Shown: piece after piece, positions 4,997-64,000 of the stretch
Layout of the letters: every line of letters starts with the position of its first letter
How positions within the stretch are numbered: position 1 is the first letter of the stretch
Source: Thermovibrio sp.
GTDB taxonomy: Bacteria; Aquificota; Aquificia; Desulfurobacteriales; Desulfurobacteriaceae
Reading direction: 5' to 3'
DNA length: 64,000 bases
Assembly: GCA_015490195.1 (NCBI GenBank)
Contig: WFYG01000005.1
Coordinates: forward strand, 1,478-65,477
The notes under the pieces: generated by a model
What the model was told of the DNA's origin: nothing
Database searches by the model: none
What the model saw: only the letters and a program-made list of their open reading frames with translations
Made by a program: the position numbers and the translations under genes

Positions 4997-6193
4997 ATGA
5001 GGAAAGCCCTGTTTCTTCTCACTTCCCTGATGGTTGCTACATCTGCCTCTCAGGCTCAAACGGTTTCAAACGAAGAGATACTCCAGAAACTCCAACAGCT
5101 TGAGAAAAAGGTTCAGGAGCTTGAAAAAGAGAACAGGGAGCTAAAGAAACTCCTCTACAGAAGAACTGCCGTTGTTCCTTTAAGGAAGAGAACAGAAAAG
5201 GTTAAAGTTGGGGGAAGGGTTCTTTTCAGGTTTTCCCAAACGCAGGACATAGATGAGAACGGCGGAAAGTCCATATTTGGAGATTATGGAAACGGGTTTG
5301 AGGTTAAGAAGGCTAGGCTTCACGTAAAGGGAGAGCTTAACGATAATATCAGTTATGCCATTCAGATAAAGGCAGATAAGGGAAGCCAGGTTCAGCTCTG
5401 GGATGCTTACGTCAAATACTCTTTTGACTCCATTCCACTTTCGGTAAAGATGGGGCAGTTTAAGACTCCTGTCTCTATGTCTTACTTAAAGAGTGGAACA
5501 GAGCTCTGGCTTCCTGAAAGGCCTGTTGCCGTTAACGAGATTGCTCCTGTGTGGAGAGAGATTGGAGTTTCAGCTACCTATAAGCTCTTTAAGGGAGTTA
5601 AGTTAACTGCCGGCGTGTTTAATGGTGAGGGGTGGAGCTCCTCCGAAAACTACAACAGGGACAAGAAATACCTCTACACCCTGGCCTTAGATGCAACTCC
5701 TATCAACAATGAGGATTTAACCTGGCGCTTTAGATTAGGCGGAGAGTTTGGAACGGACGACTCTTCCAAGATGATTTATACAAAATACGGAGCTGCTTCT
5801 GTTAAAAGACACCTGATTGACGTTGAAACAGCACTCAAGTTTAAGCCCTACAACCTCTCCCTTGAGGCTGGATACCTCTACGACAACCCGACAGACGGAA
5901 AAGACAGCTCTGGAAAAGACGTATCACTTGGAAACGCCAAGGGCTACTACGCACAGGTCAACTACGGTCTCCCATTCTTTCCGAAAGTTCACCTTGTTGG
6001 CCGCTACTCCTGGTTGGATCCAAACGACGATATTAACGATAAGTACGACGTTAACTACACAACCATTGGCTTCTACTACCTCTTAAACGGCTGGCAGGCA
6101 GCAGTCAGATCTTCGTACACCTGGGCTAATGAAAGGCACGGTAAAGAGATTGACAACAACGTGTTTGTAACAGAGTTCCAGCTTCTCTTTTAA
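4997..6193 (+). CDS. Outer-membrane porin, probably phosphate-selective porin O/P family
   Basis: It has the signal peptide MRKALFLLTSLMVATSASQAQ, an N-terminal coiled coil, alternating beta-strand pattern and a C-terminal aromatic residue (..FQLLF). The ATG at 4997 with a GGAGGAG SD is preferred over 4937. Confidence 0.6.
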   Translation: MRKALFLLTSLMVATSASQAQTVSNEEILQKLQQLEKKVQELEKENRELKKLLYRRTAVVPLRKRTEKVKVGGRVLFRFSQTQDIDENGGKSIFGDYGNGFEVKKARLHVKGELNDNISYAIQIKADKGSQVQLWDAYVKYSFDSIPLSVKMGQFKTPVSMSYLKSGTELWLPERPVAVNEIAPVWREIGVSATYKLFKGVKLTAGVFNGEGWSSSENYNRDKKYLYTLALDATPINNEDLTWRFRLGGEFGTDDSSKMIYTKYGAASVKRHLIDVETALKFKPYNLSLEAGYLYDNPTDGKDSSGKDVSLGNAKGYYAQVNYGLPFFPKVHLVGRYSWLDPNDDINDKYDVNYTTIGFYYLLNGWQAAVRSSYTWANERHGKEIDNNVFVTEFQLLF

Positions 6194-13460: not shown

Positions 13461-15626
13461 TTATCCGTCTTCTCTCCTCAGCTCCTCTGCCAGCTTAACT
13501 AAGTTTCTAAGGGCTGGAATAACCTCTTCCCAGCGCCTTGTTTTCAGTCCGCAGTCGGGGTTTACCCAGAAGTTCTCTTTGGGAATTACCCTGAGAGCTC
13601 TCTCTACAATCTCCTTCATCTCCTCAACTGTTGGAACGTAAGGGGAATGGATGTCCCACACTCCAAGGCCTATCTGTCTGTCAAAGTTGACCCTCTCAAA
13701 GGCCTCTATGATATCTCCCTTAGAGCGGGTAGCCTCAATGGAGATGACGTCAAAGTCCATCTCTAAGATGTAATCAATAATCTCCCCAAACTCAGAGTAG
13801 CACATGTGGGTATGAACCTGGGTTTCAGGTTTAACTGAAGAGTGGCAGAGGCGGAAAGATTTAACGGCCCAGTCAAAATAACCCTTCCAGTTTCTTCTCT
13901 TTATGGGAGCTCTTTCCCTGATTGCCGGCTCGTCTATCTGAACGATTCCAATTCCGGCTTTCTCGTAGTCTGAAATCTCATCTTTCAGGGCTAAGGCTAT
14001 CTGGTAGGCAACTTCTTCTGTTGGGATGTCTTCCCTTACATAGCTCCAGGCGATAATCGTTACGGGGCCTGTGAGCATTCCTTTAACAGGTTTTTCGGTT
14101 AAGCTCTGGGCAAAGGCTATCTCTTTAACTGTCATCTGGCCTTTTCTCTCAACGTCTCCGTAGATAATGGGAGGTCTGTAGCACCTTGTTCCGTAGGAGA
14201 TAACCCAGCCGTTTCCGGTTGTTGCAATTCCCTTCATCTTCTCGGCGAAGAACTCAACCATGTCCGTCCTTTCAAACTCTCCGTGGACAAAGACGTCCAG
14301 GCCCAAGTCTTCCTGTATCTGGATAGCTTTTGCTATCTCTCCTCTTATAAAGGTGTCGTAGTCTTCCTGGGAGAGCTTTCCTTTCCTGTAAAGGAGTCTT
14401 ATCCTTCTTACCTCTTCTGTTTGAGGGAACGAACCTATTGTTGTTGTTGGGAAGAGCGGGAGTTTAAACTTCTCCTTCTGAACCTTAACCCTCTCTCTGT
14501 ACTCAGGCTTTCTGACAAAGTCGTCGTCCTTTAGAGAGGACACTCTTTCTCTGACGTGGGGGAGCTCCCCAAAGGGAACGTTGATTCCCTTAACCCACTC
14601 CTCAGCTTCTTCCGTTCTGCCTGAAAGTATATCTCCGATGAGTTTTATCTCCTTCAGCTTCTCCTCGGCAAATGCAACTTTCTGAAGGAGTTCTTCAGGA
14701 AGCGTTGCCCCTGAAAGACTGACAGGTAGGTGGAAAAGTGGAGCTCCGTTTGTAATAACAACGTTCTCTCCCAGCTCTCTTATTAGTTCTGCCGTTTTAA
14801 AGAGGTCATTCCTCCATACGTTTCTTCCGTCAACAACTCCGGCAAAGAGGGTTTTGCCGTTTCTGTCTATCTCTTTAAGCTGTTTCAGATTCTCTCCCCT
14901 ATCGTGGACAAGGTCAACGCCGACTCCCGAAACGGGTAAGTTGAAGAGAACGTCCAGCCTGTCTACGCTGTCGTAGTAGGTAAACAGGTTTACAGGGCAG
15001 TTTGACTTCTCAAAGAGGGAGTAGGCTTCTTCAACGGCCTTCCACTCCTCCCCTGAGAGTTCCAAAACGAAGGCCGGGTCGTCTAAGTGAAGGGACTTAA
15101 ATCCTTTTGTGTTTGCGTACTCAACTGTAAGTTCTACCAACTCTTTTAGAGCTCCGGCAAAGTACTCAGGTTTTAAACCCTTGGAGAGTTTAAGGAAAGT
15201 AAGGGGACCGATAACGTGGACGTTTTCCTTTGCTCCTTCGTGTCTGTCCCAAACGGGTTTTGTCAGTTTGAACTGGGGTTTTTTACCCCCAAAGTCGGGA
15301 ACTAAGTAGTGGTAGTTTGTGTTGAACCACTTTGTCATCTCAAGGGCGTTCTTGCCGCGGCAGAGGTTGAAGTAGTCGTTTAAGCTCTCTGCCGTGTACA
15401 CTCCGAAGAGGAGCGCCGTGTCAACCATCGGGTCGTAGAGGGTCATCTCACCTTGAGGGTGAGAGTCTACAAACTTTCTGTAGGTTTCCTCTCTTTTCTC
15501 GTTGAGCTTTTTGATTCCTGAGAGGAGCTCCTCTTCACTGACTTTTCCGGCCCAGTAGCCTTCAATGAGCCGTTTAAACTCTCTCTGCTTCCCCAGTCTC
15601 GGGAAGCCGTAAGCGTAAGTCTTCAT
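13461..15626 (-). CDS. metE: Cobalamin-independent methionine synthase (5-methyltetrahydropteroyltriglutamate-homocysteine methyltransferase)
   Basis: At 721 aa it carries TTTIGSFPQT, HMCYSEF and PDCGLKTR, which are MetE hallmarks. Confidence 0.93.
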   Translation of the reverse strand: MKTYAYGFPRLGKQREFKRLIEGYWAGKVSEEELLSGIKKLNEKREETYRKFVDSHPQGEMTLYDPMVDTALLFGVYTAESLNDYFNLCRGKNALEMTKWFNTNYHYLVPDFGGKKPQFKLTKPVWDRHEGAKENVHVIGPLTFLKLSKGLKPEYFAGALKELVELTVEYANTKGFKSLHLDDPAFVLELSGEEWKAVEEAYSLFEKSNCPVNLFTYYDSVDRLDVLFNLPVSGVGVDLVHDRGENLKQLKEIDRNGKTLFAGVVDGRNVWRNDLFKTAELIRELGENVVITNGAPLFHLPVSLSGATLPEELLQKVAFAEEKLKEIKLIGDILSGRTEEAEEWVKGINVPFGELPHVRERVSSLKDDDFVRKPEYRERVKVQKEKFKLPLFPTTTIGSFPQTEEVRRIRLLYRKGKLSQEDYDTFIRGEIAKAIQIQEDLGLDVFVHGEFERTDMVEFFAEKMKGIATTGNGWVISYGTRCYRPPIIYGDVERKGQMTVKEIAFAQSLTEKPVKGMLTGPVTIIAWSYVREDIPTEEVAYQIALALKDEISDYEKAGIGIVQIDEPAIRERAPIKRRNWKGYFDWAVKSFRLCHSSVKPETQVHTHMCYSEFGEIIDYILEMDFDVISIEATRSKGDIIEAFERVNFDRQIGLGVWDIHSPYVPTVEEMKEIVERALRVIPKENFWVNPDCGLKTRRWEEVIPALRNLVKLAEELRREDG

Positions 15627-15925
15627 GCTGCTACCTCCTGTGGGTGTTTTGGTTTTAACACCCGCAGGAGCTCCAAGGCGGGAAAAGAAAAAGGAATACC
15701 CTCTCCTTTCCCGCGCCCCGAACCCCCGCAGGACGCGAAGGGGTGGGTCTTCCCACCCATCACGGGCCGGTCTCCCGGCTTGCAGGGTTTATCAGGTCAG
15801 TACCTTCCCAGAGCGGCGGCTTTTCACCTTTCCACTCCAGTGGCAAAGACCCAGTTCTTTCCCTGCTCACGGTTGCGAGGACAGCGCCGGACTTTCACCG
15901 GACTTCCCGTTCACCCGTGACGGAC
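15627..15925 (-). promoter_or_regulatory. Cobalamin (B12) riboswitch plus SD-sequestering expression platform in the metE leader
   Basis: The reverse strand reads TCACGGGTGAACGGGAAGTCCGGTGAAAGTCCGGCGCTGTCCTCGCAACCGTGAGC...GCCACTGG...AAGCCGGGAGACCGGCCCGTGA. P1 is TCACGGG/CCCGTGA, and AGCCGGGAGACCGGCC is the B12 box. A downstream hairpin (15635-15670) pairs with the AGGAGG SD. Confidence 0.85.
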
Positions 15926-15954
15926 AACAATTTATGCAGGGAAGGTTTGGAAGG

Positions 15955-33716: not shown

Positions 33717-35318
33717 ATGGTTATGGTTTACATATACGATACAACTCTTAGGGATGGAGCACAAACCAGGGGAGTCTCTTTCTCTTTGGAGGATAAGCTC
33801 AGGATAACTCAGGCTTTAGACGACCTTGGAATTCACTACATAGAGGGGGGCTGGCCCGGTTCAAACCCGAAAGACCTTGCCTACTTTGAGGCCGTTAAGG
33901 GGCTTGATTTAAAGAACGCAAAGATTGTTGCTTTCAGCTCAACAAAAAGGAAAGGTTTAAAGATAGAGGAAGATGCCAACATTCAGCAGCTTATAAAAAC
34001 AGAAGTTCCTGCAGTTACGGTTTTTGGAAAATCGTGGGACCTCCACGCAACTCAGGGGCTTGGAATCTCACTTGAGGAGAACTTAGAGCTCATTTACGAC
34101 ACAATTTCGTATCTAAAGCGCTACTTTAACGAAGTTTTCTTTGACGCAGAGCACTTCTTTGACGGCTATAAGTCCAACCCGGAGTATGCTTTAAAGACTC
34201 TATTGGTTGCTGAGGAGGCCGGGGCAGACTGTTTAGTTCTATGTGATACAAACGGTGGAACCCTCTGGTATGAGACTGAGGAGATAATAGATGAAGTTGT
34301 TAAGAAGGTGAAAGCTCCCTTTGGCATCCACGCCCACAACGACTCAGACATGGCCGTTATTAACTCTCTTATTGCCGTAAGGAAAGGGGCTGTTCAGGTT
34401 CAGGGGACTATAAACGGTTTGGGCGAAAGGACGGGAAACGCAAACCTCTGTTCAATCATCCCCAACTTAGTTCTAAAGATGAAGGTTGAGTCAATACCTG
34501 AGGAGAATCTGAAGAAGCTCTACTCTGTTTCAAGGTTGGTTTCGGAGCTCTCCAACCGCCCCCACCCTGTTAACCTGCCCTACGTTGGAGAGAACGCCTT
34601 TGCCCACAAGGCCGGCGTTCACGTTTCTGCCGTTGAGAAGAACCCGAAGCTCTACGAGCACATTGAGCCGGAAAAGGTCGGTAATAAGCGGAAGATTATG
34701 GTTTCGGAGCTCTCTGGAAAGAGCAACATCATCAGCAAGGCAAGAGAGCTTGGAATAGAGCTCTCCAAAGACTCTCCCGCCGTTAGAAAAATCCTTGAAA
34801 AGATTAAAGAGCTTGAAGCTCAGGGCTACCACTTTGAAGGGGCAGAAGGTTCCTTTGAACTCCTTTTGAAGGAAACTTTAGGACTTACGAAAAAATACTT
34901 TGAGCTAAAAGGTTTCAGGGTTCTAACTGAGAAAAGGTCTGAAAACGAGGAAGCCTACGCAGAGGCCACGATAAAGGTTGAAATTCCAGAAGAGATTGCA
35001 AAAGAGAGAGGGATAGAGGACAGGTTTGAACATACAGCCGCAGAAGGTAGAGGCCCCGTGGAGGCTCTTGATAAAGCCCTCAGAAAAGCCCTTGAGAAGT
35101 TCTACCCGTCGATAAAAGAGGTAAAGCTTACAGACTACAAAGTCCGAATCCTCAACGAGGCTGCCGGAACTGCTGCGTCTCCGAGGGTTCTCATTGAGTC
35201 AACAGACGGTAAGAGAAAGTGGGGAACAGTTGGAGTTTCTCCAAACGTTATAGAGGCTTCCTGGTTGGCTCTTGCCGATGCCATAAAGTACAAGCTTATG
35301 AAAGATGATGAATCATGA
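33717..35318 (+). CDS. cimA: (R)-citramalate synthase (LeuA-family, CimA type)
   Basis: [21 protein letters not shown]...[18 protein letters not shown] and HAHND are present, with a C-terminal regulatory domain; 533 aa. Confidence 0.85.
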
Positions 35319-36095
35319 GTTCTTTTTTAACTTGTTTTCGTATAATTTTTGAGCAATGTTGTAGCCTTTTGATGTAATTTTTATTATGGCTCCTCTTTCT
35401 CTTTTAAGTTTAACTATTAGGTCAGCTTTTTCCAGTTTGTGAATAGCTGAACGGATGGAGGTTTCTTTACCTTTTATTCCTGATACTAGATTCTTAAGCT
35501 CAATACCTTCAGGATATAACTCAGAGAGGACTAATAGGATTTTTTCTTTTAACGTAAAATCACCGGAAAACACAAATTTGCCACAGTATTCTTCTACTAA
35601 GTTGGGTTTAAATTTTGTAACTTTTATTTGATTAAATAATTCGTCCATCTCTGTTGGCTTCGTTAAATCTTTCAATATTAGAAGTTCCCTTAATAACCAG
35701 GAACATCCTTCAAAAGCAAGGTGTGCGTCATGTTCTCTAGGAAATCCTTTTTTAAAATGACCTCCTCCTCTTTTGTTTCTCAGAACGTAAATGCATTCAA
35801 CAACCGTTGGCATTATGGTTCTTAATGTGTCTTCTAATTGATTTTTTGGCAGGCTTTTTAGTCTATCTAACTCTCTTTTAACATGAATTTCCTCATTAAG
35901 AGGAGTATAAGGGATGCCTGCTAATTCCTGTAAGATTCTTGTAAAAATTTCACAAAATTTTCCACTTTTTTCGAGGCATCTTTCGTAATCTTTCTTTAAA
36001 AAAGAAACTTGAAGTTGGAAAAAGCAATTGCTTATGCTTTCTGCTAAAGAATCGTCACTTAAAATCTTGAGAAGTAGAGTTCTAAGTTTATCCAC
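35313..36095 (-). CDS. HEPN-like (Abi_C-type) domain protein with a C-terminal winged-helix domain
   Basis: [10 protein letters not shown] is an Rx6H motif of the kind seen in Abi_C/HEPN families. The C-terminal [16 protein letters not shown]...ITSKGYNIA resembles a wHTH. The GTG start overlaps the upstream stop (TAGTG). The local sequence is AT-rich. Confidence 0.5.
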
Positions 36096-46997: not shown

Positions 46998-47369
46998 ATG
47001 TTTCAAGAGTTCTGTTCTGGTAACAACGTTGTTTGTGTTACGGATGAACTTGAGGGACAGATTAGAGAGCTTGATAAAAGGGATAGGAAGCGGGTTTTAC
47101 AGTATCTCTACAGGCTGGCAGACCGGTTTCCAAATAAGCCTGAGCAGTGGCGGAAGTTAAAGGGAAGCGGATGTGAAGATGTTTTTGAGCTTAAGCCAAA
47201 GCCTTACAGAGTGGCCTGTCTGGTTTATCGGAAACGTTACATACTGGCATACTATCTGTGGAGGGTCCAGTCAAACAGAAGTAAGAGAAAATCTGATGAG
47301 ATAGGTAAAGCCTGTAGAATAGCTCAGGAGCTCAGAGATGGCTTTAAAAGATTTGTTGAACGAGTATAG
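46998..47369 (+). CDS. RelE/ParE-superfamily toxin (Gp49/HigB-like)
   Basis: It is small, and FELKPKPYRVACLVYRKRYILAYYLWR resembles the Gp49/HigB core. It is followed by an overlapping XRE-HTH gene in toxin-first order. Confidence 0.55.
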   Translation: MFQEFCSGNNVVCVTDELEGQIRELDKRDRKRVLQYLYRLADRFPNKPEQWRKLKGSGCEDVFELKPKPYRVACLVYRKRYILAYYLWRVQSNRSKRKSDEIGKACRIAQELRDGFKRFVERV

Positions 47370-47655
47370 GTTTGATGAAGAGTTTATATACGAGGGACTT
47401 CTTTTAGATATTTCCTCTCAATTGAAGAAGTTAATGGAGGAGAAAGGTATAACGAAAAAAGAGCTTGCAGAGAGAATGGGAGTATCCCCCTCTTACATTA
47501 CAAAAATTTTCGGTGGAAACAATATTTCTTTAAAAACAATTGCTAAAGTTCTATCTGCTCTTGAGGTTGATGCTACTCTTGAAATTAAAAAGAAGTCAGA
47601 AAATTCCACTGAAACTTCTGTGAATGATAAGAAGATTTTAGTTTTCATTGATTAA
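47338..47655 (+). CDS. XRE-family HTH antitoxin (HigA-like)
   Basis: ITKKELAERMGVSPSYITKIFGGNNISLKTIAKVLSAL is a canonical HTH_3 motif. Confidence 0.7.
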   Translation: MALKDLLNEYRFDEEFIYEGLLLDISSQLKKLMEEKGITKKELAERMGVSPSYITKIFGGNNISLKTIAKVLSALEVDATLEIKKKSENSTETSVNDKKILVFID

Positions 47656-55743: not shown

Positions 55744-56318
55744 TGGCTGAAGAGAAAAAGGAGGGACAGAATCAGGAGCAACCCCAGGTAATAGTTGGAA
55801 GTATGCCATACAGGGTTTCAATGGCAGAAGTAGATGCCTACGGCGTTATGTATTACTCAAGGTTCTTTGAGCTCTTTGAAAGAGGAAGAACAGAGCTCTT
55901 CAGGGCCTTAGGAATTGAATACAGACAGATACTCCAGCAGAAACAAATCCTCATGCCCGTTGTAGAGGCCGCCTGCAGGTACGTCGCTCCTGTTGTTTAC
56001 GACGACCTCATAACCCTTGAAACTGCAATAACGAACATAGGAACCAGGGGAATCAGGTTTGACTACAGAGTTTTAAGAGACGACGTTGTTCTGGCAGTTG
56101 GATTTACCCAGCACATCTTCATAGATCCTCAGGGAAGACCTGTTTCATTTGGAAAAGAGGTTGTGGAGCTCCTCAAGTCAAAAGGCATCATAAAAGACGT
56201 TCAGCTTGTTGAAGAGCCGGCAGGGGAGCAGCAGCCCTCTCAGGAAGGAATAACGGACAAGCTGAAAAAACTCATAACTGAAAGAGTTGAGAAAAATGAC
56301 GGCGGAACAACCAATTAG
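55743..56318 (+). CDS. 4HBT/YbgC-type acyl-CoA thioesterase with a C-terminal extension
   Basis: VDAYGVMYYSRFFELFERGRTELFRALG is a hotdog-fold YbgC-like motif. Confidence 0.72.
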   Translation: MAEEKKEGQNQEQPQVIVGSMPYRVSMAEVDAYGVMYYSRFFELFERGRTELFRALGIEYRQILQQKQILMPVVEAACRYVAPVVYDDLITLETAITNIGTRGIRFDYRVLRDDVVLAVGFTQHIFIDPQGRPVSFGKEVVELLKSKGIIKDVQLVEEPAGEQQPSQEGITDKLKKLITERVEKNDGGTTN

Positions 56319-56364
56319 CAGGTAAATTTTAAATTGGAGGGGGAGCTCCCCCTTTCCCGTTCTT

Positions 56365-57327
56365 GTGAACAGCTTTTTGGGGAAAAGGTTGAAAGGGTTC
56401 CTGTTTATAACAACACCAGGAACTTCAATTTCCAGAAAAGGGAATGTTCTGATAATTGATATAAAAGAGGAGAGAAAAAGAATTCCAATCGGGATTATCA
56501 AGCATGTTTTTCTATTCGGAAACGTAAACATAACTATTCCTGCGATTAGACTTCTGTCGTCCCGCGGGAAATTTATTTTTCTCCTCAACAGGTACGGCCG
56601 GCTTGTTAGTATAGTTTGCCCTGAATTCTTTGGAAGCGACAACAACCTGAGAGTGGAACAGTATAAGGCCTTTACAGATGGAGAGACAAAAACCAGAATT
56701 ACAAAAGAGCTCTTGAAAAGGAAACTTGAAGTTCTGGAAGTAGTAGTTAACAATTTATACGCATCCCGTGGTTTAAGGGCAGAGAATTTTGAAGATTGGA
56801 AAGACAAAATACTGATATCTCTAAATTCTGCAGATAGTAATCAGAGCCTTTTGGGTATTGATGGAAATATAAGTAAATTTCTTTACGATAAGCTTTCCAA
56901 ATTTAACGAAAGTCCTTTTTCCTTTGAAAAGAGAGATTACTATCCACCTCCTGATCCTGTTAATGCCCTGCTTAGCCTGAGTTTTTCCATTTTCTATTCT
57001 CTAATGCATCCCGTAGTTTTGGCCTTTGGGTTTGATCCCTATTTGGGATTTTTCCACGTAAAGAGAGGAAAACACGCTGCCCTTTGTTCCGACGTTATGG
57101 AAATTGTAAGGCCAAGGCTTGCTGAATTTGTCTTTAACACTCTTAACGATGGTTTCTTTTCTGAAGAAGACTTTTCTACCGATAAATCCGGCTTTTACCT
57201 GAAAAACAAAGCACTTAAAACCTTTTTAAAACTCTATACAGACGTAGTCATTCACGGCAAAGAGAATCTGTTTATTGATTCTGTTTTAGACTTCCTCAGC
57301 TGGCTTAAAAAGGAAGTTAAAAGATGA
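56365..57327 (+). CDS. cas1: CRISPR-associated endonuclease Cas1 (module 1)
   Basis: YYPPPDPVNALLSLSFSIFYSL...GFDPYLGFFHVKRGKHAALCSDVMEIVRP is the canonical Cas1 C-terminal catalytic domain. The start is uncertain (the GTG at 56365 or a TTG roughly 20-25 nt downstream). Confidence 0.9.
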   Translation: MNSFLGKRLKGFLFITTPGTSISRKGNVLIIDIKEERKRIPIGIIKHVFLFGNVNITIPAIRLLSSRGKFIFLLNRYGRLVSIVCPEFFGSDNNLRVEQYKAFTDGETKTRITKELLKRKLEVLEVVVNNLYASRGLRAENFEDWKDKILISLNSADSNQSLLGIDGNISKFLYDKLSKFNESPFSFEKRDYYPPPDPVNALLSLSFSIFYSLMHPVVLAFGFDPYLGFFHVKRGKHAALCSDVMEIVRPRLAEFVFNTLNDGFFSEEDFSTDKSGFYLKNKALKTFLKLYTDVVIHGKENLFIDSVLDFLSWLKKEVKR

Positions 57328-57602
57328 GGTATTTGGTAACTTACGATATCTGCGACGATAACAGACGAGAAAAAGTGATAAAACTTCTAAACGATTGTGG
57401 TAAAAGAGTTCAGTTCAGCTGTTTTGAAATAGATATTTCCTCTCAGGAGCTGGAATCTCTGCTTTCCCGACTAAGTAAGATCATAGATAAAGACGAAGAC
57501 AAAATTTACATTTTTCCTTTATCAAAGTTTGCTGTTCCATTTGTGAGAAAGTTAGGAAAGAGAGATACTGAAGGTAATAGTAGTTTGAGTTTGATATTAT
57601 GA
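57324..57602 (+). CDS. cas2: CRISPR-associated endoribonuclease Cas2 (module 1, first copy)
   Basis: MRYLVTYDICDDNRREKVIKLLNDCGKRVQFSCFEIDIS....KIYIFPLS matches Cas2. An ATGA overlap with the cas1 stop links the two genes. Confidence 0.85.
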   Translation: MRYLVTYDICDDNRREKVIKLLNDCGKRVQFSCFEIDISSQELESLLSRLSKIIDKDEDKIYIFPLSKFAVPFVRKLGKRDTEGNSSLSLIL

Positions 57603-57917
57603 GTTTACCAAAGCGAATTAACAGATTTGTTGTTATTTACGATATTTGTGTTCTTGATGATTCCTACGAGGAGCGTAGAAGTTCTGCTAAGAGAAGAGCA
57701 AAAGTTATGAGAGTTTTATATGACTATGGAATAAGAACACAATATAGTGTCTTTGAGATTGAACTAAGAGGCAAGCAGTATTCTGATAACCAGGATAAAG
57801 CAAATAATAAGAGAAACTTCGGATAAGGTTTACATATATCCCCTTGATAGCAGAAGCGTTAAGAAAACTGTAAGATTAGGAAAAACTGCAGAAATAATTT
57901 TAGATTTCTTCCTTTGA
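57599..57917 (+). pseudogene. cas2: Second Cas2-like gene of module 1, interrupted by a frameshift near 57767-57775
   Basis: Frame 1 reads RFVVIYDICVLDD...RVLYDYGIRTQYSVFEIELRG and then runs out of frame to a stop at 57826. The +1 frame continues ASSILITRIKQIIRETSDKVYIYPLDSRSVKKTVRLGK..* (stop at 57915-57917), collinear with the second Cas2 domain of 61583..62218. Confidence 0.6.
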
Positions 57918-58140
57918 GGAAATTGTGTATAATATATGCGAATGCACTTGGTCTTTGAAAGTTGAATAGGAGTTGTAGCAAGGGCTTTTATGGTATTCTA
58001 AAACACCAATATTTAAACTTGTGATTCTCAAGGCTTTAGAAACTGTATTGAGGAAAACCTTGTAACGCAGGGTATTTTAGTTTTATATATAAATCTCAAG
58101 TTTTGAGAGACTTGTATTTCAATGAATTTATTTTTTCGCT

Positions 58141-58334
58141 GTTGAAATGCCCTAAAAAGTGGAAGGGATTGCGACCATAAGGGCTTTAGCTCTTTTCAGC
58201 TCCGCCTCCAATTTCTCTATCGTTGAAATGCCCTAAAAAGTGGAAGGGATTGCGACGCAACTTCTCCTAAGTTTCTTGCCGCTCCTGTGTTAAAGTCAAG
58301 TTGAAATGCCCTAAAAAGTGGAAGGGATTGTGGC
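58141..58334 (+). CRISPR. CRISPR mini-array 1: three 35-nt repeats and two spacers (46 and 43 nt)
   Basis: GTTGAAATGCCCTAAAAAGTGGAAGGGATTGCGAC occurs at 58141-58175 and 58222-58256. The terminal repeat at 58300-58334 is degenerate at its 3' end (..GATTGTGGC). An AT-rich leader lies upstream. Confidence 0.85.
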
Positions 58335-58525
58335 AAATAGAGTTTTACTTTTGCTCTGTTAAGAGTTTTTTGATATAGGTTTAGATTTTATTGGATTTCC
58401 TTTTCCAGTTTTGGCAGGTGTTTTAATTTGTTTCCCGGCTAATACTTCCGTATTCATATATGGGGAAATTGTTGAAAGCAGTAATCTTCCACCGGGATAT
58501 GTTTAGATGTTTCTGATTTGATTCT

Positions 58526-58873
58526 TTAAAATTGTTCTATACTTTTCTTTAACTTATGTATTTCTTTTTCCAGATTGTCCAGCTCTTTTTCCAATATGAC
58601 CCAGATTATGTTAACATCAATATCAAAATACTTATGAGCTGTTATGTCTCTAAATCCGGCAATTTTTCACCAGGGGATAGAGGGATATTCTTCTTTTATC
58701 CATTCGGGGATATGTTTAACAGCTTCTCCTATGTTCTGAAGTGCATATATAACTGCATATTGGGTTTTTGTGTCTTCAAGAAAATCTTTATAGCTATATC
58801 CTTTGATAAATTCCCAGATTAAGGAGATTTTGTATAGAATATCGTCTATGTAGTGAGTTCATTCTCTATGCAT
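58526..58873 (-). pseudogene. DUF86/HEPN toxin gene with two in-frame TGA codons
   Basis: MHRE*THYIDDILYKISLIWEFIKGYSYKDFLEDTKTQYAVIYALQNIGEAVKHIPEWIKEEYPSIPW*KIAGFRDITAHKYFDIDVNIIWVILEKELDNLEKEIHKLKKSIEQF is the DUF86 pattern with the RDITAH Rx4H motif. The TGA codons are at 58861-58859 and 58669-58667. The ATG overlaps the MNT stop (ATGCATAG). Confidence 0.65.
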
Positions 58874-59177
58874 AAATTACCTCTTTCAGTATTAATATTC
58901 CTACTTTCCCTTTAAGGGTTTTTTTGGATACAAGGTCAACTTTCCTGCCAAAAATGTCTTCAAGGAATACTTTGAGGCCAAGAAAATCAAGGTTTTCAAG
59001 ATTGTTTATGTCGTAATCAATTAGTATGTCTATGTCGCTATCTGGTCTCTGTTCGTTCCTTACAACAGAGCCGAAGATTCCTATTTCTTTTATCCCAAAC
59101 TCTCTTTGAAGATAAGGTTTAAGTTCTCTGAGTTTCTGGAGGACTTCCTCTTTGCTTATTTTTGTTAACTGTGCCAT
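58866..59177 (-). CDS. Minimal nucleotidyltransferase (MNT-type antitoxin partner of HEPN)
   Basis: GIFGSVVRNEQRPDSDIDILIDY is the GS..(n)DxD nucleotidyltransferase motif; 103 aa. Confidence 0.8.
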   Translation of the reverse strand: MAQLTKISKEEVLQKLRELKPYLQREFGIKEIGIFGSVVRNEQRPDSDIDILIDYDINNLENLDFLGLKVFLEDIFGRKVDLVSKKTLKGKVGILILKEVIYA

Positions 59178-59265
59178 TTTTCTTTGCTCCCATTCAGTGT
59201 TGAGAGTTATCTTGCTTAATTAATCTATGGAGCTCCCTGGAATACAATCAAGTTTGTAAGGGCTT

Positions 59266-60270
59266 CTATCTGAACGGAATTCTGGCAGGTTTTCTGGAGG
59301 AGAGTGCTTTTTGGAGCTCCTCCGGAAAGAGCCTGTATGTTTTTATTACGTTTATCACTTCCCGTGCGCCCCGCTGTAGAACTCCTTTCTCTTTAAAGTA
59401 GAGGTAGAGTGTTTCCAACTGGTCTTCTGTGAGCTTGAAACCGGATTCGTAGAGAGCTCTCTCCATTATCACTAAAAACTCCTCTCTTGTAAGGGGAAAG
59501 AATGGAACAACTGTCTGAACCCTGCCCAGGAATTCTGGCGGAAACTTTCCCTCAAGGAGCCTCTTTGTCTCTAAAAGAGCTTCAACCGGAGAGAGTTTAG
59601 AGAGTTCTCTAACCTCTTCCCTTAATGCATTTGAGGTTAGAACTATTACTGAGTTGTACATCGGCAGGAGCTCCCCCGTTGTTGCAAACTGAATGACTCC
59701 CTCGTCCATAACCGAAAGGAAGGCCGTTCTAAAGTCCGGATGTGCCTTTTCAAATTCGTCTAAAAGGAGCAGGAGATTTCCTCTGCTCTCTGCAACTTTT
59801 TGAATTAGAGGGGGAACGGAGTCTGAACCGATGTAGCCCCGGGGAGCTCCAAAGTAGCTTGAAACCTCATACCTATCCTGAATCCTCTCGCAGTTGATTC
59901 TGAAGAACTGATAGCCGGCAGTTGAGAGCGTTCTTCCGAGAACTTTTACAGATTCCGTTTTCCCCGTTCCAGTTTCTCCTACAAAGAGCATAACTAACGG
60001 CTTAGTTTTAAAAGGCCTTGCTAAAAACTCCCCAACCGTTCTGCTTATAATTCTTTTTGCGGTCTCCTGACCAACTATGTAGTAGTTTAAATCGCTATAA
60101 ATTACCCGTGTGTTCTTTTCTGCAAGTTTAACAGCCCTTTTCTCCATCTTTTTCCGTTTTCTCCTCTCCAAAAACCTTGATAGGAATCCAAACTTTGGTG
60201 GAAAAGCTATGAAGAGAAGAATAAGTAAAAGAGCACTGTAAAGAACAATGTCTTCCAAGCTCAACTTCAC
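59266..60270 (-). CDS. Membrane-anchored single-module AAA+ ATPase of the Clp/Hsp100 D2 type
   Basis: An N-terminal TM helix (IVLYSALLLILLFIAFPP) is followed by VGQETAKRII, Walker A FVGETGTGKTE, Walker B LLLLDEFEKAHP, VLTSN, and a D2-small-domain-like FLGRVQTVVPFFPLTREEF. Confidence 0.72.
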   Translation of the reverse strand: MKLSLEDIVLYSALLLILLFIAFPPKFGFLSRFLERRKRKKMEKRAVKLAEKNTRVIYSDLNYYIVGQETAKRIISRTVGEFLARPFKTKPLVMLFVGETGTGKTESVKVLGRTLSTAGYQFFRINCERIQDRYEVSSYFGAPRGYIGSDSVPPLIQKVAESRGNLLLLLDEFEKAHPDFRTAFLSVMDEGVIQFATTGELLPMYNSVIVLTSNALREEVRELSKLSPVEALLETKRLLEGKFPPEFLGRVQTVVPFFPLTREEFLVIMERALYESGFKLTEDQLETLYLYFKEKGVLQRGAREVINVIKTYRLFPEELQKALSSRKPARIPFR

Positions 60271-60482
60271 CTCCAGTGAACGGCTCCTACTGCTGTTATT
60301 GAAGAAGGGAGCTCCCTCTCTCCGTGAAGAGCCGAGGCCGTTGGCCCTGAGCCGGAGAGAGGTTTTCCGTGGACTGATGCCACGGCTTTTGTTTTTGTTC
60401 TTCTGTGAAGGCTTTCGGCCTCTTTTCCCTTAAAGGTTAAGAGAGCTCTGTGGATAGCGGCAGCTTTAAAGAGGTTCATCAC
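60267..60482 (-). CDS. Hypothetical 71-aa protein, translationally coupled to the AAA+ ATPase
   Basis: It overlaps the ATPase start through GTGA. It is itself preceded by a 25-aa mini-ORF (60479-60556, strong GGAGGGAG SD). It contains no recognisable motif. Confidence 0.3.
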   Translation of the reverse strand: MMNLFKAAAIHRALLTFKGKEAESLHRRTKTKAVASVHGKPLSGSGPTASALHGERELPSSITAVGAVHWR

Positions 60483-60644
60483 TCTCCTCCTTTTTGTTTA
60501 GTAGTCTTTCCTTCCACCGGCTCCGAAGAGCAGCAGAAAGAGAATCAGCCACTTCATCTTCTCCCTCCTTTTTGCTTTCTCACTACTTAAAAACGGGAAA
60601 AGGCTGGTTTTTCTGACAGGTTTTTCTAAAGGTCTGAAATCTCT

Positions 60645-61586
60645 GTGTTTTTCCGTTTTATAGAATTGACAAAAAGAGTTGGGGAAAAGGGGTTGAGAAG
60701 ACCGATATACGTTGCAACTTACGGAGCTGAAGTAGGCAAATCTGGAAATTCCTTAACTGTTAAAACAGAAGAGGGGATAAAGAGAATTCCTTTAGGGGTT
60801 ATAGAGTATTTAGTTCTCTTTCCGGGAGTTGAGATTACAGTTCCTGCACTCAGGTTCCTCTCAAGCCATAAAAGGCCGGTTTTCCTCGTTAATCAGTTTG
60901 GAAAAGTCTCATCTGTTGTTCTGCCCGAGGTTGTAGGGAGCTCCACCGCCACTTTAAGAGCAAAACAGTATGAAAAGTTTGCAGATGCCGAATTTTCGGT
61001 GAATATGATAAGGGAGCTCCTTAACCTCAAACTCTCAAAACTTGAAGAAATAACGGGTTCTTCTTACCCTGAAATCAGAAAAAAGATAAAGTCTGCCAAA
61101 AAACCTGAAGTTCTTTTAGGAATAGACGGCAGATTAGGGAAAATCCTCTACGACTTCATTTCAAGGAAAAACAGAAGCCCTTTCCCGTTTAAAGGGAGAG
61201 AATACTACCCGCCGCCAGATCCGATAAACGCCGTTTTAAGCCTTACATTTACAGTTTTCTACTCACTTTTGACGGCGGCAGTCATTTCCACCGGGTTAGA
61301 CCCTTATTTAGGCTTTTTCCACATCCGTCGGGGAGTCCACGCCGCCCTCTCGTCAGACATCATAGAGCCCATAAGACCACAAATAGCCGACTTCGTTATA
61401 GAACTATTTAACAGCGGATTTTTTGAAGAAAAAGACTTCCTGCAAACCACAAAAGGCGTAAAAGTTGAAAGTTCTAAACTTAAATCTTTACTGAGATTAA
61501 TTGTTAACTTTGAAATAGACAGAAAAATATCTGAAACTTCTCTGGAATTCTTGCAGTTCCTAAAAGATTCTCTGAGGAAGCCGTGA
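60645..61586 (+). CDS. cas1: CRISPR-associated endonuclease Cas1 (module 2)
   Basis: YYPPPDPINAVLSLTFTVFYSL...GLDPYLGFFHIRRGVHAALSSDIIEPIRP is collinear with the module 1 Cas1. The start is uncertain (the GTG at 60645 or the TTG at 60695). Confidence 0.9.
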   Translation: MFFRFIELTKRVGEKGLRRPIYVATYGAEVGKSGNSLTVKTEEGIKRIPLGVIEYLVLFPGVEITVPALRFLSSHKRPVFLVNQFGKVSSVVLPEVVGSSTATLRAKQYEKFADAEFSVNMIRELLNLKLSKLEEITGSSYPEIRKKIKSAKKPEVLLGIDGRLGKILYDFISRKNRSPFPFKGREYYPPPDPINAVLSLTFTVFYSLLTAAVISTGLDPYLGFFHIRRGVHAALSSDIIEPIRPQIADFVIELFNSGFFEEKDFLQTTKGVKVESSKLKSLLRLIVNFEIDRKISETSLEFLQFLKDSLRKP

Positions 61587-62218
61587 ACTTTGTTATTACT
61601 TACGACATAGAAGACGACAGAAGAAGACTTGAAGTTGCTGAATATTTACTAAGATACGGAGAGCGTGTCCAATACAGCTGTTTTGAGGTTTCCATTTTTC
61701 CTGAAACTCTTGTTGAACTTGTGTCATTTAACCTGAGAAGATTGGCTGTTGGAGAGTTTGACAGGGTTTTTCTTTATCCAATCAGTAAATTTTCAGGAAA
61801 ATATATTATCCGATTTTCCCTTGGTATTAGGGATGCCGAAAAAAGTTTTAAGGAGCTATTAGAACTCTTCTTTAACCAAAAATCCAGACTTCTCCGGTTT
61901 AAATACCTGAGCTTAATAGAAGATGATTTGGATTTGCAGATAAAAATCGGCAGATTCAAGAAATACCTGATTATTTACGATTTGGAAGATGGCTATGTAA
62001 GGAACCGATTTTCTAAGTTTTTATCTCAGTTCGGCTTCAGAGCTCAGTTAAGTGTTTTTGAAATAGAGGCTGTTCCATCGGCTTTAACCAGAATAATTCT
62101 TGAAGCCAGAAAGGTTTCCCGCTACGGAAAAGTTTATATTTACCCTTTAGACGAAAGGAGTTATAAGAGAATAATTCGGATTGGTAAACCTTATTCGCCT
62201 ATTGACGGAATCATCTGA
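61583..62218 (+). CDS. cas2: Tandem Cas2-Cas2 fusion protein (two Cas2 domains in one 211-aa polypeptide)
   Basis: Domain 1 (aa 1-85) reads FVITYDIEDDRRRLEVAEYLLRYGERVQYSCFEVSIF...RVFLYPIS. Domain 2 (aa 126-211) reads KKYLIIYDLEDGYVRNRFSKFLSQFGFRAQLSVFEIEAV...GKVYIYPLDE. An ATGA-type overlap links it to cas1. Confidence 0.8.
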   Translation: MNFVITYDIEDDRRRLEVAEYLLRYGERVQYSCFEVSIFPETLVELVSFNLRRLAVGEFDRVFLYPISKFSGKYIIRFSLGIRDAEKSFKELLELFFNQKSRLLRFKYLSLIEDDLDLQIKIGRFKKYLIIYDLEDGYVRNRFSKFLSQFGFRAQLSVFEIEAVPSALTRIILEARKVSRYGKVYIYPLDERSYKRIIRIGKPYSPIDGII

Positions 62219-62379
62219 TTTTTGGTAAACTATTCTTGGTAGAGTTCCTTGAAAACTGAATAGGGAATCCCTTTAAAAGGGCAAATCTGCCGAGAATGTA
62301 AAAGCCCTTGAAACACAAGGGTATTACTTTTCGGTTAAAAATGAATACCAGTTATTTCAAAGGTTTACGATAGGTGACT

Positions 62380-62488
62380 GTTGAAATGCCCTGAAAAAGT
62401 GAAGGGATTGCGACTATGATTCTTTTAGATACTCTGTTATTTCATTTACTTTTGTTGAAATGCCCTGAAAAAGTGAAGGGATTGCAGT
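62380..62488 (+). CRISPR. CRISPR mini-array 2: two 35-nt repeats and one 39-nt spacer
   Basis: GTTGAAATGCCCTGAAAAAGTGAAGGGATTGCGAC lies at 62380-62414. The second repeat at 62454-62488 is degenerate at its 3' end (..GATTGCAGT). The repeat is a close variant of the array 1 repeat. Confidence 0.7.
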
Positions 62489-62663
62489 TAGAATCAGAAA
62501 TCATCAGTTTCGAAGCTTAAGAGGAATATTTGAGCTTACAAGAGAAGAAAGACATCTGAGTAAGAGATTTCCAGACGAGAGAGAGATGATTACGACCCTG
62601 TAAAAGTTCCAAAAGGGAAGGTAGAGAAATATATTCAACTTATAGAACGGCTAATAAAAGAAG

Positions 62664-62933
62664 TTGAAAGATATGCTGAAAGAAATTACAAAGATTGACC
62701 TACTGAAAGAGGTTCAGGAATGTATTAACAAGGATAAAGAACTAAAGGGTCATATAAAGCTTGATCTGATAGATTTAGATACAGGAGCAGATTTTAACTT
62801 CTTGATACTTTCAGATAAACCGTTCAGTTGGAATATCTGGGATAAGGTTCAAGAAGTTGTTTATAACTGCTTGGAGCAATACGATCCTTATATTACTTTA
62901 CACTTTGAATGGGAATATATATCTGAAAAATAA
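62664..62933 (+). CDS. Hypothetical 89-aa protein
   Basis: The ORF is intact (TTG at 62664 or ATG at 62673) but I recognise no motif. The upstream 62490-62660 holds only start-less ORF fragments. Confidence 0.3.
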   Translation: MKDMLKEITKIDLLKEVQECINKDKELKGHIKLDLIDLDTGADFNFLILSDKPFSWNIWDKVQEVVYNCLEQYDPYITLHFEWEYISEK

Positions 62934-62986
62934 GTTTTATCTGAATTAAAAAAACAAGAAAAATTGGGATTTTAGTAGAAAATGCC

Positions 62987-64000
62987 TTATATGTTGGGAA
63001 TTTCTCCGGCGTTGAAAACGGGTCTGTAATCTTTTAGCTCTTTAAAGTAGCTCCAGACCTCTATGTCCCAGTAGTTTCCAACGGCCATTCCAAGAGCAAA
63101 AGCTATCGGGTTTGGAACGCTCATTATCAGGTGGAATTTTCTGTATCCTCTGTCGTAAACTCTGTTCATTGCCTCGTAGAGCTCCGCAACAATCTCAGTC
63201 CAGTTTTCGCTTAAAGGAACTCCTCCCTTTAGCTCCGGTGCGTGTATGTAGAAGAAATCTCCGTTGAACTTTTCTGCCAGCTCTTCTCCCTTTCTCCTTG
63301 TTTCGTGTGAGGCAACCTGAAGAGCAACAACTGCCGTGTCCGTCTCTTTTCCCGCTTCAGAAACAATTTCAATGTAGAGGAGCTCCCGCCTCCTCCTCTT
63401 TATCTGCCTGCTGTCTTCTGTAAGGTCTATAACTCTGTGGTATTTCCCGTTTTCAAAGTGGTAGAGTGCAACCGGCAGTTTTCCTGTTCCTATAACTATT
63501 CCAGCGCCAAAAGAGAATGTTATGGGAGTTTTGAGGGCTATGTGCAGTGAAATTGGAAAAGGAATTTTCTCTTTAATTTCTAAAACTCGTTTCTGGAATT
63601 TTTCAAACAAGGGAAGCCAGTTTTCTGAGGGAAGAATTGGCGGAAGCTGAAAGATGAGGAGCTCCTTATCAGCGTATCCCTCAACCGGTTCAAAGTTTAC
63701 AGTTCTGCAGAGGAGCTCAAAGGGTTGCTTTAAACTCTCTTTCTCTCCGGTTCCTATGAACAGAGGAATTTCCGTTTTTTCACCTTTAAGGAAATCTCCC
63801 AACTTCCTGATGTTTCCTTTTCCTATCAGCGTTTTTCCCTGTTTTCTGGCTATCTCTTCTTTTTCTTTCATGTGGTCTGCAGAGAAGTTTTCCCCGTAGA
63901 GCTTTCCTGAAAGTAAAAGGTTTTCGGGGAGCTCCCCGTAGAGAAGTGCATAGGCCAGCGGAGCCTGAAAGGAGTCTCCGCTGAACTCTCTGTCAAAGAA
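62987..64000 (-). CDS. Lon-protease/SAVED fusion protein (CalpL-like); the N-terminus lies beyond the window
   Basis: The frame stays open from 63871 to the window edge and reads FSGDSFQAPLAYALLYGELPENLLLSGKLYGE....MKEKEEIARKQGKTLI, a Lon S16-like Ser...Lys pattern. The C-terminal 290 aa hold two CARF-like half-repeats ending ..KTPITFSFGAGIVIGTG..VALYHF and ..SVPNPIAFALGMAVGNYWDIEVWSYF, as expected for SAVED. Confidence 0.62.
   Translation of the reverse strand, partial: FFDREFSGDSFQAPLAYALLYGELPENLLLSGKLYGENFSADHMKEKEEIARKQGKTLIGKGNIRKLGDFLKGEKTEIPLFIGTGEKESLKQPFELLCRTVNFEPVEGYADKELLIFQLPPILPSENWLPLFEKFQKRVLEIKEKIPFPISLHIALKTPITFSFGAGIVIGTGKLPVALYHFENGKYHRVIDLTEDSRQIKRRRRELLYIEIVSEAGKETDTAVVALQVASHETRRKGEELAEKFNGDFFYIHAPELKGGVPLSENWTEIVAELYEAMNRVYDRGYRKFHLIMSVPNPIAFALGMAVGNYWDIEVWSYFKELKDYRPVFNAGEIPNI

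Follow-up and report, generated by a model that had tools for sequence, protein, structure and literature searches.

Two sets of CRISPR adaptation genes, each followed by a leader and a repeat array, are found at the right end of a 64,000-nt stretch of Thermovibrio sp. DNA (in the following the window), and this locus raises the question which CRISPR system, if any, they serve. Our analyses were directed to positions 56365-62488 and their flanks. In our view this region probably represents the adaptation end of a type III-A (Csm) locus of Desulfurobacteriaceae (Aquificota), containing two old paralogous modules, each built up as cas1, Cas2a/Cas2b, leader and array.

Proteins were assigned by profile searches with Pfam, NCBIfam and PADLOC (the cut-offs for Cas1 are 22.3 bits for Pfam PF01867 and 71.7 bits for TIGR00287). 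Together with the listing of open reading frames (ORFs) and with repeat finding, these searches reproduced the two collinear, diverged modules at 56365-58334 and 60645-62488 which had been described in a first-pass annotation of this DNA (Table 1). The composition given there for both modules, cas1, Cas2a, Cas2b, leader and mini-array, is correct in its order; it has to be amended in that cas2b of module 1 is frameshifted and that Cas2a and Cas2b of module 2 form one 211-aa fusion. The arrays consist of 35-nt direct repeats, which differ only in their centre and there exactly as quoted before, and both possess unique spacers of 39-46 nt (46 and 43 nt for the two spacers of array 1), an AT-rich leader upstream and a degenerate end repeat. 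Most spacers in the arrays of relatives have 32-55 bp. Five occurrences of the repeat pattern were counted in the window, and none in 100 shuffles of it, which served as background. In the last repeat of the two arrays, ATTGTGGC and ATTGCAGT are found in place of ATTGCGAC. This degeneration and the leader upstream establish that the arrays are transcribed on the plus strand, with the 8-nt ATTGCGAC, a tag shared by both repeats, at the repeat 3′ end. Leader 1 shares conserved blocks such as TGAATAGG and TTGATTnnCAAGG with leaders that precede populated arrays in relatives, and both leaders are homologous to leaders of relatives' arrays holding 11-13 spacers. A scan of 185,579 species genomes with the repeat gave matches only in Desulfurobacteriaceae and Thermovibrio metagenome-assembled genomes (MAGs), plus one MAG of an 'uncultured bacterium', and a search of Rfam returned no CRISPR-DR family for this repeat. 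A coupling of repeat variant and module type was considered and rejected, because in Desulfurobacterium pacificum the variants are paired the other way round.

In accordance with the first-pass annotation, no interference gene was found within the window: tblastn searches with Cas10, Csm2-5, Cas6, Card1 and Csx3 of relatives gave no match in the 64 kb, PADLOC searches with the window ORFs without assigned function gave no Cas match, and the other ORFs read as housekeeping genes. An effector-free window of this size would fit stand-alone adaptation units that serve distant effectors or none, as had been proposed. However, the window end cuts through a calpL-like gene. The ORF 62987-63871 aligns to the C-terminal 280 residues of the CRISPR-Lon and SAVED-Lon models (PADLOC SAVED_LON_TM E=4e-58, CRISPR-Lon E=5e-53) and contains the Lon-like GDSFQAPLAYALL motif, and a full-length orthologue matches the CalpL structure 7qda with E=3.5e-26. 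CalpL is a protease activated by cyclic tetra-adenylate (cA4) and specific to type III CRISPR systems (PMC11417357). With this gene, a type III-specific ancillary gene of cyclic oligoadenylate signalling is present at the locus.

What follows calpL was read in relatives. The two contigs closest to the window over its last 1.5-1.6 kb, L016 (97.4% identical to 62454-64000) and L017 (94.2% identical to 62380-64000), both show the order calpL, three small genes and cas10-csm2-csm3-csm4-csm5-cas6. A truncated cas10 and a lost csm3 in L016 were rejected as signs of operon decay, both sites being 100-N scaffold gaps. A further contig, JALWGN010000073.1 (L002 and L006, in the following L006), shows synteny with the window, the DNA being 78-88% identical. 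On this single contig carB, a thioesterase gene, leader 1 with array 1, the AAA ATPase, cas1, the cas2 fusion, array 2, a HEPN gene, a small ORF and calpL are followed by two small genes, cas10, csm2, csm3, csm4 and csm5, so that module 2 and the Csm operon are joined; Cas10 has 1001 aa here and comprises HD, Csm1_B and palm domains. In relation to the equivalent of the window end, cas10 starts approximately 2.1-2.3 kb further on (3828 vs 1548 in L016, 4146 vs 1867 in L017 and 9241 vs 7143 in L006), the distance being about 2.3 kb in the strains which are 94-97% identical over the last 1.5 kb. The small genes between calpL and cas10 (1904-3764 in L016, 2223-4083 in L017, 7508-8938 in L006) encode proteins of 262/274, 200/197 and 140 aa. 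They occupy the place expected for CalpT and CalpS, and sequence searches assigned them no Pfam family and no solved structure, neither of CalpT/CalpS nor any other.

A stand-alone arrangement of this module type does exist elsewhere (L008, L010). At the D. pacificum locus L008, where the array has 13 spacers, and at the Thermovibrio loci L010-L012, module-2-type cas1-cas2ab genes and an array are surrounded by housekeeping genes, and no effector is present within 10 kb. In the lineage of the window this arrangement was not seen, and here we regard effector-less units as quite unlikely, although the Csm operon was read in relatives and not in the window's own continuation. The effector operon next to the modules, whose presence the first-pass annotation had named as evidence against its own reading, is found in the nearest available strains and, by inference, here.

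The coexistence of two modules could be an artefact, either an assembly duplication or a chimeric join, since the source contig is probably metagenome-assembled and CRISPR repeats are a frequent cause of breaks or false joins in assemblies. However, the two Cas1 proteins, already described as homologous and strongly diverged, are only 42% identical over 315 residues, and apart from the repeats the modules are not similar at the DNA level. The same order was found independently in L006, and in the D. pacificum assembly both paralogue types (L008 and L013) are located 240 kb apart on one contig, FXUB01000001.1. The concern about an assembly duplication, raised before as a possible objection, has next to no probability left, and the duplication of the adaptation modules is ancient and real.

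The gene order in relatives points to the origin of these modules. The module-1-type locus of D. pacificum (L013) is arranged as cas10-csm2-csm3-csm4-csm5-cas6-card1-x-csx3-cas1-cas2(90 aa)-cas2(107 aa)-array, with 11 spacers, and the same order is present in L024 and L025 (Ga0256836_1000018). In a third branch (P0038; L019 and L026) the order is cas1-cas2-cas2-cas10-csm2 and following genes. The module-2 type, a cas1 of about 300 aa with a fused cas2 of about 205 aa, occurs in D. pacificum and Thermovibrio, and in the latter it adjoins csx3. Cas1 of module 1 is 71% identical to the D. pacificum Cas1 P0023 and has homologues with 56-81% identity across Desulfurobacterium, Balnearium and related MAGs. 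Both modules belong to one Desulfurobacteriaceae-centred Cas1 lineage, which is native to type III-A loci.

A second property of this lineage is the doubling of Cas2. Two Cas2 genes or a fusion were found in every module examined with a Cas1 at least 34% identical to that of module 1 (counted as 14; both window modules, L006, L008, L010, L013, L015, L019, L021 and L024-L029). Of 80 Cas1 relatives fetched from metagenomes, the more distant ones whose gene context could be read, around 65 loci, have one Cas2 each, except L040 with two. Cas2a and Cas2b are 31-39% identical to each other. Their grouping was taken from a neighbour-joining tree, in which the N-terminal halves of the fusions fall together with the split Cas2a and the C-terminal halves with the split Cas2b. 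The a/b duplication is therefore older than the split of the module types, and the fusion arose once, in a-to-b order. Conservation and fusion of both paralogues are the classic signature of an obligate heteromer, and since the lineage always carries two diverged Cas2, a Cas2a/Cas2b heterodimer is implied.

The fusion protein of module 2 comprises two Cas2 ferredoxin-like domains, and the linker of about 35 residues between them forms two helices. Both halves have an invariant Tyr-Asp where strand 1 ends. A confident AlphaFold2 model (predicted local distance difference test, pLDDT, 82.7; predicted template modelling score, pTM, 0.81) contains two beta-alpha-beta-beta-alpha-beta domains joined by two helices; its top Foldseek matches are Cas2 structures, and each domain superimposes on Cas2 crystal structures with a template modelling (TM) score of about 0.7. 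Together with module 1, the window has four Cas2 domains, one of them the frameshifted Cas2b. As a single chain, Cas2a-Cas2b is very rare: among 1.84 billion representative proteins, searched exhaustively with HMMER, only three full-length fusion clusters were detected, and a word-indexed search detected 14 fusion proteins, of which all with a source name are from Desulfurobacteriaceae. The 888-aa protein P0259, with seven 'Cas2-like' stretches, was rejected as a multi-Cas2 protein, being a low-complexity repeat protein.

The Cas1 proteins of the lineage deviate in the active site. In a survey of the catalytic columns, the first catalytic Glu is replaced by Asp (LLGIDG) in 32 of 32 clade members, whereas Glu is present in 87 of 87 outgroup sequences. 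Both window Cas1 have Asp, and in alignments with PDB entries the Asp of module 2 Cas1 falls on the catalytic Glu of solved Cas1 proteins. The triad here is D-H-D/E, with the His and the Asp...Glu motif invariant. An Asp throughout the clade and the unusual presence of two Cas2 per module might indicate that Cas1 and Cas2 have an altered activity and are used outside CRISPR immunity, for instance in a casposase-like or toxin-like manner, and such a non-canonical use had been considered in the first-pass annotation. However, all examined modules have a leader and an array with unique spacers behind them, several genomes show the module inside a complete type III-A operon, and beside the modules there are neither terminal inverted repeats nor a casposon-type polymerase. 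His and Asp/Glu are invariant, Asp for Glu is a conservative metal-binding substitute, and Cas1 may be active. We regard the non-canonical reading as very improbable.

The two modules of the window seem to differ in their state. In module 2 (cas1 ORF of 313 aa, with the start likely at 60693, giving 297 aa) the genes are under strong purifying selection, with dN/dS (ratio of nonsynonymous to synonymous substitution rates) values against L006 of 0.098 (cas1) and 0.079 (fusion), dS being about 0.8. Because the genes are also intact, module 2 appears to be functional. The comparison of strains for spacer turnover, recommended in the first-pass annotation, showed that the spacers of array 2 are wholly different in the window (one), L017 (four) and L006 with the near-identical contig L007 (three to four), and the degenerate terminal repeat and the flank are common. 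Ongoing acquisition and loss would produce such a pattern. In array 2 of L006 (5135-5449), one spacer-repeat unit is present twice in tandem (TTTTCCTCAAAGTGCTTCCTAACTATCATCGCTAA), and once in L007. The repeat's first base is C, not G, in the L006 and L007 arrays.

For module 1 cas1, translation probably starts from the TTG at 56389, as the relatives have 312 aa in comparison to an ORF of 320 aa. The stop of cas2a overlaps the start of cas2b (ATGA). In cas2b the reading frame is shifted near 57775; frame 0 encodes 75 aa before its stop at 57826, and the C-terminal third, which is conserved (...DKVYIYPLD...RLGK...), is found in the +1 frame up to 57917, while intact orthologues have 107 aa. Accordingly, tblastn with Cas2b of L013 gave two pieces in different frames, and the profile search gave two partial domains. 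The shift is located outside any long homopolymer. In L006, the whole cas1-cas2a-cas2b block of module 1 is deleted; around 65 nt of the cas1 5′ end are left and joined to leader 1, and array 1 is kept. Owing to the frameshift in the window and the deletion in L006, module 1 looks redundant and on the way of being lost in this lineage. A second, independent cas2b frameshift was observed in the module-1-type locus L025 (5241-5542), in a T run within the LSVFEV motif about ten codons upstream of the site in the window. Here, either recurrent cas2b loss or a sequencing error could be the cause.

For the type III-A locus with two adaptation modules, the following mode of action appears most likely. 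One Cas2a/Cas2b heterodimer would bridge two Cas1 dimers, where normally a Cas2 homodimer does so, and in module 2 this heterodimer would be made as one polypeptide, Cas2a-linker-Cas2b. The complex would insert prespacers at the leader-proximal repeat of the adjacent array. Transcripts of both arrays would be cut by the Cas6 of the locus and loaded into the Csm complex predicted to be encoded about 2 kb past the window end. Sharing of CRISPR RNAs (crRNAs) between the arrays is suggested by the common repeat with the 3′ tag ATTGCGAC, which should make the crRNAs of both usable by one Cas6/Csm. Recognition of target RNA would then drive signalling of Cas10 to CalpL through the cA4 branch. As a tentative extension, to which we give a rather low probability, Cas2a/Cas2b might make the integrase asymmetric, so that the prespacer ends could be distinguished without a protospacer adjacent motif (PAM) or Cas4 and spacer orientation or length would be set; the exchange of Glu to Asp may have been co-adapted.

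Several points weigh against this picture. The Csm operon of this exact genome is deduced from L016, L017 and L006, and a 50-mer from the window end had no exact match in the JGI metagenomes. Formation of the heterodimer and activity of the Asp-variant Cas1 are deductions from sequence, and the structural match covers each Cas2 domain singly and not their relative packing as in a real Cas2 dimer. The frameshift in cas2b could be an assembly error, though it lies outside long homopolymers. Furthermore, the arrays are tiny with two and one spacers, the three spacer cores gave no exact match in IMG/VR, and comparison of the spacers with the window and the relatives' loci gave no matches beyond chance 12-mers. 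Few spacers without protospacer matches, the frameshifted cas2b and the two HEPN toxin genes of the locus, which are pseudogenes or remnants, would also be expected if the whole locus were a decaying relic in which neither module acquires and the mini-arrays are leftovers. Against such a relic stand the intact module 2 genes with dN/dS of 0.08-0.10 versus L006 at dS of about 0.8, a recent spacer turnover, implied by the lack of any common array 2 spacer among the window, L017 and L006, and the conservation of the leaders with those of 11-13-spacer arrays. Decay of the entire locus is thus unlikely, and we prefer the adaptation end of a type III-A locus.

Table 1. Features of the CRISPR region at the right end of the window (positions refer to the window)
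Feature	Position	Strand	Evidence and remarks
cas1, module 1	56365-57327	+	Pfam PF01867 E=1e-60, 205.7 bits; TIGR00287 E=3e-55, 187.7 bits
cas2a, module 1	57324-57602	+	92 aa; PF09827 E=2e-21; groups with Cas2a paralogues
cas2b, module 1, frameshifted	57599-57917	+	CRISPR_Cas2 E=4e-10; three-frame translation
Leader 1	57918-58140	+	223 nt, AT-rich; alignment with L006, L013, L015, L004, L001
CRISPR array 1	58141-58334	+	three 35-nt repeats GTTGAAATGCCCTAAAAAGTGGAAGGGATTGCGAC at 58141, 58222, 58300; terminal one degenerate
HepT-like HEPN toxin remnant	58526-58858	-	without start codon; in-frame TGA at 58667-58669
MntA-like nucleotidyltransferase, HEPN/MNT antitoxin, intact	58866-59177	-	PF01909 E=2e-15; NF047752 E=2e-11
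ClpB-D2-like AAA+ ATPase, N-terminal membrane helix	59266-60270	-	PF07724 E=6e-22
cas1, module 2	60645-61586	+	PF01867 E=9e-51, 173.2 bits; TIGR00287 162.1 bits
cas2a-cas2b fusion, module 2	61583-62218	+	one 211-aa ORF; two PF09827 stretches
Leader 2	62219-62379	+	161 nt; conserved with leaders of relatives' module-2-type arrays (alignment)
CRISPR array 2	62380-62488	+	two repeats GTTGAAATGCCCTGAAAAAGTGAAGGGATTGCGAC at 62380, 62454, second degenerate; one 39-nt spacer
HEPN gene remnant	62570-62665	+	32 residues; tblastn with L006 125-aa HEPN protein
Conserved 89-aa ORF, intact	62664-62933	+	tblastn with L006 87-aa ORF
calpL-like Lon-SAVED protease gene	62987-64000	-	5′ end beyond window; frame open to base 64000

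Further genes are located between and behind the modules. In the HepT-like remnant the RX4H motif (RDITAH) lies beyond the in-frame TGA, and the toxin half of this HEPN/MNT pair looks dead. Just past array 2, L006 has an intact 125-aa HEPN gene overlapping an 87-aa ORF (5483-6098; Pfam HEPN E=6e-4), and the corresponding remnant and 89-aa ORF of the window may be a second degraded toxin-antitoxin-like pair. The AAA+ ATPase is situated between both arrays, at the same place in L006 (2005-3021), and has its best PADLOC matches with PDC-M37B (E=1e-27) and the Dodola component DolB (E=3e-25); no partner gene is evident at the locus. Next to module-2-type cas1-cas2ab-array loci of relatives, an SNF2-family helicase of approximately 675 aa was observed (L008 11911-13950, L010 8407-10422, L012 5207-7222). 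The helicases of D. pacificum and Thermovibrio are 59% identical, in opposite orientations and with different flanking genes, and an association with the adaptation module may be conserved; no homologue was found in the window.

The region 56001-64000 has a G+C content of 38-40% versus 42-50% in the preceding 56 kb, with a fall from about 45-48% at 56 kb, which is consistent with an island of other origin or under different constraint. Predicted promoters between 56 and 64 kb were not above the shuffled background, and the promoter and terminator scan was not used further. In the remaining part of the window, a cobalamin riboswitch (15748-15933, minus strand; Rfam RF00174, 94.8 bits) is located directly upstream of a 721-aa metE-like gene (13461-15626). 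At 46998-47655, a Gp49/RelE-like protein (123 aa) overlaps an HTH_3 Xre-type regulator (105 aa), and this pair looks like a toxin-antitoxin system of the HigB/HigA type. A 260-aa ORF without Pfam family (35313-36095, minus strand) has 70 C-terminal residues weakly similar to the helix-turn-helix of PADLOC CasR/CARF_TM (E of about 2e-4), probably just a winged helix.

If the conserved Cas2 heterodimer is true, it would be a compact model of an asymmetric integrase, above all in the form of the natural single-chain Cas2a-Cas2b, the halves of which can be mutated independently and whose thermophilic origin favours structural work. This might become relevant for the way in which type III systems orient their spacers, as these systems have no PAM although the crRNA must complement transcripts. 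In addition, a natural Asp variant of the Cas1 active site is available in this lineage. In annotation, the flank should be examined before a run of cas1, cas2 and mini-array at a contig or window edge is called effector-less.

Searches of the open-access literature revealed neither a described Cas2-Cas2 fusion nor a plain Cas1 accompanied by two Cas2 genes. The only described adaptation module with two Cas2 found there is the type III-D RT-Cas1-Cas2A-Cas2B (RT, reverse transcriptase) of Vibrio vulnificus YJ016, in which both Cas2 are required for acquisition and a heterodimer was proposed; two cas2 genes are typical of RT-CRISPR clades 6 and 13 (PMC6821258). As in V. vulnificus, two different cas2 genes come after one cas1-family gene, the locus is of type III, and arrays flank the module, one of them tiny. 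In contrast, Cas1 is plain here, with about 300-320 aa, only the Cas_Cas1 domain and no reverse transcriptase, and it has Asp for the first catalytic Glu. Cas2a and Cas2b are 31-39% identical versus around 70% in V. vulnificus, the pair is fused in one sub-lineage, and the effector, as read in relatives, is III-A (Csm) and not III-D.

With the canonical (Cas1 dimer)2-(Cas2)2 integrase (E. coli 4p6i/5ds4, type I-C 8d3l, Synechocystis 7cr8) the modules share the Cas1 fold with the His and Asp/Glu residues, the ferredoxin-like fold of the Cas2 domains (TM of about 0.7) and a leader and array after the module. They differ in the Asp at the position of the first Glu and in the Cas2 bridge, for which a heterodimer or single-chain pseudo-dimer would take the place of the homodimer. 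Similar to type III-A CalpL/CalpT/CalpS loci (Sulfurihydrogenibium CalpL, 7qda; PMC11417357), the Lon-SAVED gene adjoins cas10-csm2-5-cas6 in near-identical strains and the repeat ends in the 8-nt tag ATTGCGAC; unlike there, the small genes beside calpL (262, 200 and 140 aa) have no sequence match to CalpT/CalpS, and two adaptation modules and two arrays are present in one locus. Casposons and Cas1-solo genes are different, since Cas2 genes and arrays follow both cas1 here and no polymerase gene is nearby. Other natural Cas2 fusions are Cas2-Cas3 of type I-F, Cas2-DEDDh and Cas1-Cas2. As in these proteins, a covalent link joins Cas2 to another component of the adaptation complex, but this component in module 2 is a second, diverged Cas2.

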